Part shown: positions 38,290 to 38,518 of the stretch, in pieces | Position numbering within the stretch: position 1 is the stretch's first letter | Layout: each line of letters begins with the position of its first letter | Assembly (NCBI GenBank): GCA_963773095.1 | Contig: CAVYZY010000008.1 | Coordinates: 86,246 to 150,245 of the forward strand | Direction of reading: 5' to 3' | Length of the DNA stretch: 64,000 nucleotides | Source of the DNA: an uncultured Gemmatimonadales bacterium | GTDB lineage: Bacteria; Gemmatimonadota; Gemmatimonadetes; Gemmatimonadales; GWC2-71-9 | Made by a program: the position numbers and the translations under genes | The notes under the pieces: generated by a model | What the model saw: the letters and a program-made list of their open reading frames with translations, nothing else | Told to the model about the DNA's origin: nothing | The model's database searches: none

Positions 38290-38320
38290 GACAACCTCCT
38301 CGGGTGCGTGCTGGTGACGG

Positions 38321-38360
38321 AAAAGAAAAAGGGTCCGGTCCACTCGAGTGGACCGGGCCC
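38321..38360 (-). terminator. Attenuator intrinsic terminator in the metY leader
   Basis: GGGCCCGGTCCAC-TCGA-GTGGACCGGACCC followed by TTTTTCTTTT, about 30 nt before the metY ATG. Confidence 0.92.
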
Positions 38361-38384
38361 GGGATGTCCTGGGGAAGCGTCGAC

Positions 38385-38483
38385 CTAGGGTCGGTGGCTC
38401 TCCATCGCATGCGCCATGACGTCCGTCCACTCGCTCGCCGAGTGACAGATACACATCTGGGGGCACATGCAAATTCGCTGCAT
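38385..38483 (-). CDS. Cys/Met-rich leader peptide (32 aa) of the metY operon attenuator
   Basis: Manual translation [32 protein letters not shown]; 4 Cys and 5 Met; lies between the promoter and the terminator. Confidence 0.82.
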
Positions 38484-38488
38484 GAGGG

Positions 38489-38518
38489 ACGCTACAAGCA
38501 GGGTGGGGTATCTGTCAA
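38489..38518 (-). promoter_or_regulatory. Sigma70 promoter of the metY leader (leaderless start)
   Basis: TTGACA-N18-TAGCGT-N5-ATG. Confidence 0.78.

Follow-up and report, generated by a model that had tools for sequence, protein, structure and literature searches.

A putative ribosome-mediated attenuator with Cys and Met codons upstream of metY in an uncultured Gemmatimonadales bacterium

Attenuators and sulfur amino acid leader peptides described so far

In classical attenuators, such as E. coli trp and Salmonella his, a codon-rich short open reading frame (sORF) is combined with RNA segments that can pair as a 1:2 hairpin, a 2:3 antiterminator, or a 3:4 terminator with a U-run. The textbook regulators of methionine genes are SAM riboswitches, T-boxes, and repressors. 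The attenuation principle is itself textbook matter, but its Cys/Met version has only been sketched in print so far. What is said in the introduction of a study of mycobacterial sORFs agrees, in its summary, with the above picture of classical attenuators (bioRxiv 834739).

The leader analyzed here lies in front of metY on the minus strand of the window, that is, of the whole 64,000-nucleotide stretch of DNA under study. It shares with the trp and his attenuators a sORF rich in codons for the product of the pathway, four pairing segments, and a U-run terminator that is thermodynamically the stronger structure, so that control would be kinetic in both cases. It differs from them in that its codons mix Cys and Met and lie in a long hairpin as its 5′ strand, in that the stop codon, which in the classical cases stands between segments 1 and 2, follows segment 2 by about 40 nt, in its probably leaderless start, and in its phylum, Gemmatimonadota.

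For leader-peptide control of methionine genes, our literature search returned annotation-level reports only, in C. jejuni and S. lividans, and no mechanistic study; the supplements of PMC3847290, PMC4007540 (14 D. deserti leader peptides), and bioRxiv 834739 may hold closer precedents. In C. jejuni, MetL is an ORF with Met codons in front of metB(Y)-metA, with a short RNA that ends just past its stop codon, and it was proposed to be an attenuator (PMC3847290); its translation start was seen by TIS profiling (bioRxiv 2022.11.09.515450). The metY leader resembles MetL, as far as the latter is described in the main account, in placing a Met-codon sORF before methionine biosynthesis genes, with a possible transcript end past this sORF. 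Unlike the metY leader, MetL has 20 codons, three of them Met, and an SD-led start, and the parts of PMC3847290 that deal with it mention no Cys and describe no antiterminator analysis. In S. lividans TK24, the leaderless sORF metL, which has a mixed Cys/Met C-terminus (..GARCMCRRMCAF, ..CMCRRMCAF), precedes metNIQ (PMC8079986). Its CMC..MC pattern is like that of the metY-leader sORF, and it too lies upstream of methionine-related genes. However, it belongs to an actinobacterium, precedes an importer, and is annotated in that report as methionine-dependent only; according to the passage on metL, no typical Rho-independent terminator was found, and the authors did not commit themselves to a mechanism (PMC8079986). 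A claim that no mixed Cys/Met attenuator with an intrinsic terminator had been described in this lineage, made when the DNA was read without database searches (hereafter the sequence-only reading), was too strong in view of these two partial precedents.

In mycobacteria, polycysteine leaderless sORFs of a "Cys ribulon" are reported to attenuate translation by unmasking a downstream SD (bioRxiv 834739), and earlier Cys leader peptides of Actinobacteria were described without terminators (PMC1262725). As presented there, the mycobacterial sORFs have in common with the metY leader that they are unannotated and probably leaderless, that their Cys codons couple tRNA-Cys charging to sulfur-amino-acid genes, and that they combine ribosome stalling with alternative RNA pairing, which for metY is a proposal. 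By the same account, they lack an intrinsic terminator, need consecutive Cys codons, and form a multi-locus regulon, whereas the metY leader has a terminator and its type occupies one locus per genome. The sORF of the window has no CC pair, although several relatives carry CC, CCC, or CCCC runs, and in the MFE fold the metY Shine-Dalgarno sequence, about 20 nt past the T-run, does not pair with the sORF. As the host is a member of the Gemmatimonadales and not an actinobacterium, the earlier mycobacterial framing is an analogy only. SAM-II and SAM-I riboswitches share with the leader the regulated gene, metY, and the terminator as output; unlike them, the leader has no aptamer, and its signal would be tRNA charging and not SAM.

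The metY operon and the anatomy of its leader

The genes that the leader would control belong to homocysteine synthesis and are arranged in the following order:

36961..38289, minus strand: metY, O-acetylhomoserine/O-acetylserine sulfhydrylase (homocysteine synthase); PF01053 (470 bits) and TIGR01326 (676 bits, cut-off 495)
36436..36951, minus strand: beta-carbonic-anhydrase-like gene; PF00484 (50.7 bits); starts 9 nt past the metY stop, with its own GGAGG
35328..36425, minus strand: metX, homoserine O-acetyltransferase; TIGR01392 (315 bits) and NF001209 (304.7 bits), both scores under the cut-off

The metY start is at 38289 and not at 38288. The metX match begins at residue ~89-100 of a long ORF, and the gene likely starts at the GTG at 36425, about 10 nt past the preceding stop. 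Upstream of metY, the leader contains these features:

38513..38518, minus strand: -35-like hexamer TTGACA; read from the sequence, invariant in 7/7 loci of the genus
38489..38494, minus strand: -10-like hexamer TAGCGT (genus form TAGCNT); putative function
38385..38483, minus strand: leader sORF of 32 codons plus stop; read from the sequence, with counterparts in 38/39 related genomes
38445..38471, minus strand: putative regulatory codon cluster, codons 5-13 (C M C.. M C. C)
38439..38448, minus strand: segment 1, CUGUCACUCG, apical part of the 1:2 hairpin; MFE and consensus folds
38423..38433, minus strand: segment 2, CGAGUGGACGG; folds and covariation with the terminator arm
38407..38470, minus strand: long imperfect hairpin, outer limits; MFE and consensus folds
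38381..38393, minus strand: small hairpin CGACC-CUA-GGUCG over the sORF stop codon; MFE and consensus folds
38331..38360, minus strand: intrinsic terminator hairpin, whose 5′ arm holds segment 3, GUCCACUCG (38353-38345)
38321..38330, minus strand: T-run TTTTTCTTTT, directly after the terminator stem
38295..38301, minus strand: metY Shine-Dalgarno sequence GAGGAGG

In the small hairpin, the U and A of the stop codon are in the loop and its G opens the 3′ arm.

The two promoter-like hexamers (TTGACA, 38518-38513; TAGCGT, 38494-38489) are set 18 nt apart, and 5 nt (CCCTC) separate TAGCGT from the sORF ATG at 38483. The -10-like box is weak, with 3/6 positions in agreement with TATAAT. A consensus-based scanner called no promoter in 36500-40500, and the case for a leader promoter therefore comes from conservation: TTGACA is constant and the spacer variable among the loci of the genus (n = 7). 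We infer from this geometry that the sORF starts leaderless. The peptide has four Cys and four internal Met among its 31 residues (C5, M6, C7, M10, C11, and C13, then M23 and M27), a content with a binomial P of 1.2e-6 under proteome frequencies, before any correction for how many sORFs there are.

Segment 1 has the core GTCACTCG (38446-38439) and segment 2 the core CGAGTGGAC (38433-38425). Segment 2 can pair either with segment 1 or, via CGAGUGGAC, with segment 3 (GTCCACTCG, 38353-38345), its perfect 9-bp complement, to give the antiterminator. The terminator stem GGGCCCGGTCCAC/GTGGACCGGACCC (38356-38335) has 12/13 pairs and a stability of -22.7 kcal/mol; the leader as a whole folds with z = -2.7 against shuffles. 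On all these sequence statements (the hexamers, the ATG 5 nt on, the 32-codon sORF, the segments, and the terminator, with the 9-bp and 12/13-bp pairings) the sequence-only reading was right. The 1:2 hairpin that it proposed is present, although its size was understated. This pairing is a long imperfect hairpin over sORF nt 14-77, with a basal helix formed by GCAUGUGCC (38470-38462) and GGCGCAUGC (38415-38407), and the Cys/Met codons themselves are therefore its 5′ strand.

The Rfam search for SAM classes that the sequence-only reading had called for, run on 37900-39100 at E up to 10, returned no riboswitch or other family above cut-off. All 24 matches scored 14.9-23.1 bits, against gathering cut-offs of 41-168, and were spurious miRNA, snoRNA, and sRNA-like hits, and a SAM-riboswitch reading of the leader was therefore rejected. 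In the host genome (92.9% complete), no SAM-I riboswitch was found; a SAM-II lies upstream of a thrC-like/MoeZ-like pair, and metF-metH is preceded by a SAM-II-like element that scores 34.8 bits. Among the intergenic sORFs of the whole 3.48-Mb genome, 229 have at least four Cys/Met in 12 residues, and seven of these are followed by a terminator; only the metY leader combines at least five with a terminator. A genome-wide search for a second Cys/Met leader locus, as in a regulon, gave none.

Sequencing runs were queried by word search; none had half of the words, and the best RNA runs reached 0.04-0.13. In metatranscriptome contigs of relatives, two from a single run cover 38264-38450 and 38288-38440, with strand, start, and level not readable, and the patchy coverage of these relatives does not extend over 38480-38627.

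Conservation, alternative pairing, and the proposed mechanism

Upstream regions of related metY genes were aligned, as the sequence-only reading had suggested, and a Cys/Met-rich sORF with a terminator precedes orthologous metY in 38/39 related genomes. Orthologues among 41 relatives have it in every case (16/16, with sORFs of 28-36 codons), as do 22/23 further genomes of the family. The terminator is found at all 16 + 23 loci; L128 has lost the sORF and has a degenerate T tract. Left out of the leader comparison were L017, a metY paralogue (52-53% identical) without such a leader, and split orthologue fragments of G011. The tally of 33/201 counts G210, from which no sequence was used.

The leader peptides diverge strongly except for Cys and Met (for example MKRCPEMCRCKCKC.., MCCRIRMMGRCP.., and ..AAMMMCCRP..). 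In 41 distinct leaders, Cys makes up 172/1312 residues (13.1%, against 0.81% in the proteome, ~16-fold) and Met 106/1312 (8.1% against 1.88%, ~4-fold), and each of the 41 has at least two Cys and at least one internal Met. Met enrichment is confined to the sORF frame (0.9% and 0.8% in the other two frames), while Cys codons are also common in frame +1 of the leader DNA (9.1%). The most conserved feature is an M-C codon pair, ATGTG(T/C), of which ATGTG is invariant or nearly so in 16 leaders. Nucleotide motifs, including ACGGAC after segment 2, are kept within the genus and partly beyond, and the C-terminal half of the genus peptides, EWTDV.AHA, is conserved.

In most leaders, segment 2 occupies roughly codons 17-25, and its sequence varies in step with that of the terminator arm (GAGUGGAC/GUCCACUC, GAGGUGGGC/GCCCACCUC, GGGGAGAG/CUCUCCCC, GGGACGGUCGGG/CCCGGCCGCCC). 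Per-sequence z-scores of the 2:3 duplex range from +0.5 to -4.5, with 6/16 leaders matched by at most 2/200 shuffles. Such scores are modest in GC-rich sequence and were therefore replaced by tests of cognate against non-cognate arms, with one representative for each of 19 stem types. Cognate pairing averages -22.25 kcal/mol against -19.60 ± 0.63 for permuted arms, and 1/10,000 permutations reaches the cognate value. The covariation anticipated by the sequence-only reading thus stands for segment 2 and the terminator arm overall, but seven of the 19 stem types (L012, L032, L120, L122, L125, L132, L133) rank poorly, with the cognate arm at the 10th place or lower. The consensus fold returns the 1:2 hairpin and the terminator, with compensatory change in at least one sequence at 14/43 pairs; in its segment 1 helix, one pair changes from A-U to G-U in 5/10 sequences.

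The folding switch was tested on nascent RNA folded up to the terminator loop, with a ribosome mask at set codons. In the leaders of the genus, the probability that the terminator arm is paired upstream is 0.02-0.49 without a ribosome (L006, 0.84). The antiterminator probability rises to about 0.8-0.88 with the ribosome on codons 2-14, drops to about 0-0.2 on codons 15-20, and is 0.01-0.32 at the stop codon. Folding thus supports sequestration of segment 2 by 1:2 pairing in the window leader and its genus. Outside the genus, the antiterminator is already high without a ribosome (0.68-0.95; L008-L011, L014, L016), so that these folds lend no support to 1:2 sequestration there. The switch on masked nascent RNA agrees with the sequence-only reading; this folding took the place of equilibrium folds of the complete leader, which were uninformative. 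In these, under a ribosome mask, the terminator wins at any codon, with probabilities that are 0.76-1.0 at the lowest Cys/Met codon of the individual leaders (per-leader means, 0.93-1.0). The model therefore needs a kinetic, co-transcriptional competition, as in trp.

Together, the codon-enriched sORF, the intrinsic terminator, and the covarying antiterminator found here are those of a trp/his-type attenuator. The leader-peptide logic first proposed for this locus is borne out in silico by the 38/39 conservation, the 2:3 covariation, the lack of an Rfam family, and the switch. We consider it likely that the leader is a ribosome-mediated transcription attenuator of the classical type for the operon of metY, the beta-carbonic-anhydrase-like gene, and metX. 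Transcription would begin at or beside the sORF AUG, and a ribosome would read the 32-codon leader with its Cys/Met cluster in codons 5-13, closed by Cys13. With charged Cys-tRNA and Met-tRNA at hand, the ribosome would pass, and the long 1:2 hairpin would re-form behind it or stay; with segment 2 locked in this hairpin, the 12-bp terminator would form and RNA polymerase would halt at the T-run. As the stop codon is ~40 nt past segment 2 and a terminating ribosome does not sit over this segment, in contrast to trp, termination would hang on this re-forming of 1:2. When charging is low, the ribosome would stall on the Cys/Met cluster and so cover the 1:2 hairpin on its 5′ side; the freed segment 2 would pair with the terminator 5′ arm once this is made. 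No terminator would then form, and the homocysteine-synthesis operon would be transcribed. The leader thus probably turns on its genes, via stalled ribosomes, when sulfur amino acids are short, and its codon content suggests that it may sense both Cys and Met.

Other genera and phyla, and competing explanations

In most sister genera, the sORF unit lies behind a SAM-II-like element and more than 100 nt into the transcript, and by eye the sORF has no well-placed Shine-Dalgarno sequence. The promoter geometry behind the proposed leaderless start is kept in the genus alone (7/7 loci). Rfam catches the SAM-II-like element at gathering score only in L014 among 9 loci and, at E up to 0.05, in L050 and L059 among 14 loci, and it returned nothing on L034 1120-1320. 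At E up to 1, a model built from the sister-genus element has no hit in the window. In Gemmatimonas-like genomes (L054, L060, L062, L071), Ignavibacteria, Bacillaceae, and Acidimicrobiia, metY is preceded by riboswitches of the SAM-II (RF00521) or SAM-I (RF00162) class.

Among 80 metY loci in other phyla, 25 have a sORF of this kind, and in 23 of these a terminator follows 19-51 nt past the stop. Windows with at least five Cys/Met occur in 13/80 metY upstream regions and in 0/80 of each of two controls. Cognate 2:3 pairing averages -20.83 kcal/mol against -18.22 ± 0.62 for permuted arms, and 0/10,000 permutations reach the cognate value. Units of similar build thus precede metY in Chloroflexota, Bacteroidota/Ignavibacteriota, and Acidobacteriota. 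Cys and Met are both enriched in the leaders of four phylum-level groups, and those of Bacteroidota/Ignavibacteriota are Met-dominated (for example MRCMGMMMCMMMAR); the Met/Cys-rich frames of low-GC Ignavibacteriota and high-GC Bacteroidota are unrelated in sequence.

These data bear on several other explanations. One of them keeps the attenuator and makes it a sensor of a single amino acid, either Cys as reduced sulfur or Met as end product, with the other codons as structural passengers. Cys does exceed Met in the Gemmatimonadales leaders (172 versus 106), some of which have one internal Met, Met is dominant in Bacteroidota/Ignavibacteriota, and C. jejuni MetL is described, in the account of PMC3847290, with Met codons only. 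Against this, both residues are present in 41/41 leaders and enriched in all four groups, and the M-C codon pair is the most conserved feature, so that we regard a single-amino-acid sensor as possible but doubtful. It is unlikely, in our estimate, that stalling on the sORF acts instead on metY translation, mRNA stability, or Rho-dependent termination and that the hairpin is a leaky constitutive terminator or an sRNA end. Such a role would be in line with the mycobacterial Cys sORFs, which are reported to operate at the level of translation (bioRxiv 834739), with a terminator that always forms at equilibrium, and with the RNA contigs of one run that span the terminator into metY. Yet the terminator and T-run are kept in 38/39 loci, 19-51 nt past the stop, and segment 2 covaries with the terminator 5′ arm and not with the metY Shine-Dalgarno sequence, which lies beyond the T-run and is not paired to the sORF.

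An RNA switch that binds a ligand or a protein, with the Cys/Met frame as a by-product of conserved RNA (AUGUGU, GAGUGGACGGAC), seems to us a very improbable explanation of the leader. The nucleotide motifs kept in and partly beyond the genus (ATGTG, ACGGAC), the position of the Cys/Met codons within a helix, the Cys-rich frame +1, and the SAM riboswitches in front of metY in other lineages would all fit it. However, no Rfam family matches the leader above its cut-off in the search at E up to 10, the consensus fold shows no conserved multi-helix core besides the alternative hairpins, and Met is enriched in frame 0 only. Beyond the genus the nucleotides diverge and the 28-36-codon Cys and Met frame persists, and the Ignavibacteriota and Bacteroidota frames share this richness in unrelated sequences. 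We give hardly any credence to a functional Cys-rich micropeptide, metal- or redox-active or a precursor, that is merely co-transcribed with metY. Cys-rich small proteins exist, and EWTDV.AHA is constant within the genus, but that half of the peptide overlaps segment 2 and the basal helix. Across genera, it is Cys/Met content and length that are kept, not Cys spacing or a motif, and the sORF always lies between the promoter or riboswitch and metY, where it overlaps the alternative structure.

Returning to the attenuator, we propose tentatively, at somewhat less than even confidence, that these leaders form a family dedicated to metY, so far not described as such, that reads the charging of both tRNA-Cys and tRNA-Met. 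It would cover four phylum-level groups or more, among them Gemmatimonadota, Chloroflexota, Bacteroidota/Ignavibacteriota, and Acidobacteriota. Within the Gemmatimonadales, most genera would have it in series behind a SAM-II-like variant with an inserted hairpin that escapes the Rfam model, and the genus of the window would have lost the riboswitch and moved the promoter onto the sORF AUG, which became leaderless. If so, homocysteine synthesis in the genera with both elements would be gated by SAM and by charged tRNA.

A conserved Cys/Met attenuator with a clear-cut terminator and antiterminator would add two sulfur amino acids to those read by classical attenuation. Such attenuators would prove common in Gemmatimonadota and Chloroflexota, two understudied phyla on whose gene regulation, to our knowledge, almost nothing is known. 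They would allow a natural comparison between two kinds of sensing, of SAM and of tRNA charging, that act on one gene and in some cases in series, and their sORFs point to an annotation gap, as they escape both gene callers and Rfam. Finally, the genome of the host also encodes a full-length CBS-like gene, whose protein could hand homocysteine sulfur on to Cys.

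Leader anatomy and conservation upstream of metY

The Cys/Met leader before metY is a real feature; most likely, and with good confidence, it functions as a kinetic, ribosome-mediated transcription attenuator with the same logic as the trp and his attenuators. It precedes an operon of three tightly packed genes (metY, a beta-carbonic-anhydrase-like gene, and metX).

Features of the leader and its neighboring genes
38518-38513, minus strand: TTGACA (-35-like), read from the sequence
38494-38489, minus strand: TAGCGT (-10-like), after an 18-nt spacer
38483, minus strand: sORF ATG, 5 bases past TAGCGT
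38483 to 38385, minus strand: leader sORF of 32 codons, read from the sequence
24 nt past the sORF end, minus strand: terminator hairpin GGGCCCGGUCCAC-UCGA-GUGGACCGGACCC of 12 pairs, then UUUUUCUUUU
Between terminator tail and metY start, minus strand: GAGGAGG
38289, minus strand: metY start (PF01053; TIGR01326, 676 bits)
36436-36951, minus strand: beta-carbonic-anhydrase-like gene (PF00484), starting 9 nt past the metY stop
36425, minus strand: likely GTG start of metX
From 38646, divergent to the metY operon: YajQ-family gene

The PF00484 gene wedged between metY and metX is an odd partner in a homocysteine operon. The closest named records are Gemmatimonadales MAGs, one of which (93% MetY identity) corresponds to the same stretch in a same-genus genome of our comparison.

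The four pairing segments proposed in a sequence-only reading of this region lie where it had placed them: 1 and 2 would form an upstream hairpin, 2 and 3 an antiterminator, and 3, within the terminator 5′ arm, would pair with 4. Segment 2, CGAGUGGAC (38433-38425), is perfectly complementary to segment 3, GUCCACUCG (38353-38345), as claimed. The 1:2 pairing is present but larger than described, being part of a long imperfect hairpin (sORF nucleotides 14-77) with the Cys/Met codons as its 5′ strand. Similarly, the promoter-like hexamers are in place, but the -10 box is weak and a consensus scanner called no promoter. From the invariance of TTGACA and TAGCNT in 7/7 genus loci with a variable spacer between them, the 5 to 7 nt separating the -10 box from the ATG, and the lack of a Shine-Dalgarno sequence, we infer the transcription start and a probably leaderless sORF. 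The mycobacterial parallel drawn for it is only an analogy, because the host is not an actinobacterium. A search of sequencing runs found none that covered the stretch well. Contigs from four metatranscriptomes gave patchy cover of the window, from relatives; two contigs of one run (38264-38450 and 38288-38440) cross the terminator into metY, although they do not show strand or ends and could originate from DNA.

Two further structures were observed in this region. The sORF stop codon straddles the loop and 3′ arm of a small hairpin, CGACC-CUA-GGUCG (38381-38393, minus strand), which is conserved in the genus; in two more distant leaders, double changes preserve its pairing. Between the divergent yajQ and the leader promoter lies a GC-rich inverted repeat, GGCGGGAAGGGCGGG...CCCTCCCCGCCCTCCCCGCC (38536-38617), which accounts for spurious miRNA-like Rfam matches; a similar repeat is found in the L003 locus.

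Among the 41 genomes of a first comparison (own, genus, family, and order), 16 have an orthologous metY (identity of at least 64%), and all 16 carry upstream of it a Cys/Met-rich sORF of 28-36 codons, together with a terminator hairpin whose tail is T-rich. In the family, metY orthologs occur in 33 of 201 sampled genomes, from 16 of 78 genera (counting one genome flagged unpublished, from which no sequence was used), and sORF and terminator were found in 22/23 further upstream regions. The sORF is thus kept in related genomes, as the sequence-only reading needed it to be. In the exception, L128 (G102:C60:73793-74173), no such sORF remains, and directly after a promoter-like TTGACG-N17-CATATG comes a terminator-like hairpin with a degenerate T tract; from its sequence, this locus looks like a decayed attenuator.

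Antiterminator pairing and folding of the nascent RNA

In most leaders, segment 2 falls roughly on codons 17-25, a few codons past the Cys/Met cluster, and its sequence follows the terminator 5′ arm of the same leader.

Segment 2 and terminator 5′ arm, six pairs
GAGUGGAC with GUCCACUC
GGGGUGGAC with GUUCACCC
GAGGUGGGC with GCCCACCUC
GGGACGGUCGGG with CCCGGCCGCCC
GGGGAGAG with CUCUCCCC
CGAGAGA with UCUCUC

As a composition-matched control, each leader was paired with the terminator arms of other leaders, using one representative per stem type (n=19; a 16-leader version was also run). The cognate 2:3 pairing averaged -22.25 kcal/mol vs -19.60 ± 0.63 for permuted pairs, a value reached by 1/10,000 permutations, but the support is uneven, with the cognate arm ranked 10th or lower in 7 of the 19 stem types. 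Shuffles of single sequences gave z values from +0.5 to -4.5. RNAalifold on 10 alignable leaders recovered the terminator and two further hairpins, the long 1:2 one and the small one that overlaps the stop codon; 14 of the 43 consensus pairs are preserved by double changes seen in one or more of the sequences.

At equilibrium, the 12-bp terminator forms whatever the position of the ribosome, and control must therefore be kinetic, as in trp. We thus folded nascent RNA ending at the terminator loop and recorded the probability that the terminator arm is paired upstream. For the window and genus, this probability was 0.02-0.49 with no ribosome (0.84 in the genus leader L006), about 0.8-0.88 with a ribosome on codons 2-14, about 0-0.2 with a ribosome on codons 15-20, covering segment 2, and 0.01-0.32 with a ribosome at the stop codon. 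The switch expected from masking was thus predicted for these nascent RNAs, but not at equilibrium and not in the more distant leaders, where the antiterminator is predicted even without a ribosome (0.68-0.95 in six) and the modeling does not support the 1:2 part.

A SAM-II-like element, alternative functions, and sulfur metabolism

Immediately upstream of the sORF, 27/41 Gemmatimonadales leaders have a conserved element of ~70 nt with its own terminator (L008:3105-3174(-), L010:1120-1189, L012:1070-1138, L013:1145-1210, L032:1153-1233, L111:16-84, and others); L131, a motif variant that escaped the search pattern, adds one by eye (27-28/41). With the layout GGCGG-UGGAUUUAUGGCCACUUGCUCCCGCC-[variable co-varying hairpin]-AACCAAAGAGCUAAAGCGCCG, it resembles a SAM-II aptamer into which a hairpin has been inserted, and its pseudoknot co-varies (GCUC/GAGC vs GUUC/GAAC and GCGA/UCGC). 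Rfam matches only three versions (L014 at 37.1 bits, L050 and L059 at ~30 bits), and a model built from 17 copies recovers the sites that Rfam assigns to SAM-II in L054 and L062 (19.7 bits, E 0.011). This model has no match in the window or genus, the element is absent from L001-L007 as well as from the window, and the genus therefore appears to have lost it and to have a promoter on the sORF instead.

The sORF could also be an incidental ORF inside a riboswitch, but this fits less well. At least two Cys and one internal Met occur in 41/41 distinct leaders (those of related genomes and three further public MAGs), and the Met excess is confined to the sORF frame, being absent in the other two. 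A functional micropeptide fits less well, too; the peptides are alike in little except Cys/Met and length (for example MKRCPEMCRCKCKCTPRG.., MCCRIRMMGRCP.., MVARSMCCCCMCSARP.., and ..SAAMMMCCRPLRG..). Their 1312 residues are 13.1% Cys and 8.1% Met, vs 0.81% and 1.88% in the ~942,000 residues of the own genome's predicted proteins. TGT, a rare codon in that genome (1178/7583 Cys codons of its genes), makes up 97/172 leader Cys codons, through either selection for slow decoding or an RNA-pairing constraint on the AUGUGU motif. Action of the sORF through translation, stability, or Rho instead of the terminator likewise fits less well than attenuation. Of 229 intergenic sORFs in the own genome with at least 4 Cys/Met in 12 residues, 7 have a terminator, and the window sORF is the sole one with at least 5 and a terminator after it.

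Cys, Met, or both could serve as the signal. In the own genome, a SAM-II riboswitch (40.9 bits), equipped with a terminator, stands upstream of threonine-synthase-like (thrC-like) and MoeZ/MoeB-like adenylyltransferase-sulfurtransferase genes, and a SAM-II-like element slightly below cut-off (34.8 bits) before metF-metH; the two sites are G000:C12:202629-202701 and G000:C12:150416-150489 (loci L134, L135). No SAM-I riboswitch was found in this genome. Judging from these elements, a cysK with a cysE-like neighbor, and a full-length CBS-like gene (475 bits, below the cut-off of 510), homocysteine made by MetY could supply not only Met but also Cys, the latter through reverse transsulfuration, in which case a two-amino-acid read-out would make sense.

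Precedents and distribution in other phyla

Passages of Seliverstov 2005 (PMC1262725) describe, for Actinobacteria, Cys leader peptides lacking terminators and report no RNA element for methionine operons. Polycysteine leaderless sORFs are shown to be translational attenuators in part of Canestrari 2020 (bioRxiv 834739), which calls uORF attenuation for cysteine previously undescribed to its authors' knowledge. For Deinococcus deserti, an extract of de Groot 2014 (PMC4007540) predicts 14 leader peptides, all of them leaderless, one with two Cys before cysS. For methionine, excerpts of Porcelli 2013 (PMC3847290) propose C. jejuni MetL (20 codons, 3 Met; a short terminated RNA before metBA), with an initiation peak in a portion of a Ribo-seq study (bioRxiv 2022.11.09.515450), and those of Droste 2021 (PMC8079986) annotate a leaderless S. 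lividans metL ending in CMCRRMCAF before metNIQ, its mechanism unclear to the authors. The full-text literature searched (subscription journals and supplements lying outside) described no Cys/Met leader with terminator/antiterminator before metY and reported no leader peptides in Gemmatimonadota. Mixed Cys/Met codons joined to a classical terminator/antiterminator were not found described, but Met-type leader peptides had already been noticed twice. Likewise, we did not find described the spread of such an attenuator across several little-studied phyla or its arrangement in series with a SAM-II-like element.

Across a wider sample (80 metY loci, all of named genomes), 13 carry upstream an sORF in which 12 residues include 5 or more Cys/Met; none was found in 0/80 reverse complements or 0/80 downstream regions of 400 nt. 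With at least 4, the count is 25/80, and 23 of the 25 have a terminator 19-51 nt past the stop.

Loci with sORF (at least 4 Cys/Met in 12 residues) and terminator, per metY loci
Gemmatimonadota: 9/12
Chloroflexota: 9/18
Bacteroidota/Ignavibacteriota group: 3/20
Acidobacteriota: 2/2
Cyanobacteria: 0/12
Proteobacteria: 0/7
Firmicutes: 0/3
Acidimicrobiia: 0/3

For 18 of these loci, lying outside the window's metY clade, the Chloroflexota members of which are kin, cognate pairing was -20.83 vs -18.22 ± 0.62 when permuted, reached by 0/10,000 permutations. Loci without the sORF often have SAM-I or SAM-II upstream of metY.

Leaders of Chloroflexota/Limnocylindria MAGs (L036-L048, L051, L055, L058) share a conserved C-terminal ..MCM(R/P)WRPRR(A/L)EDGV. 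They have 123-178 nt between leader terminator and metY, a stretch that gave no Rfam match when scanned in two loci, L036 and L040, and that may hold a second element. In an Ignavibacteria MAG (L066), the ~400 nt upstream of metY contain one Met/Cys sORF-terminator unit, then a SAM-I riboswitch. The corresponding ~400 nt of a Melioribacter sp. MAG (L064) contain two such units in tandem (..MMCMMLFITKG and ..FFCIMMAMMCMSDLMREGII), the end of each sORF being complementary to an arm of its own terminator.
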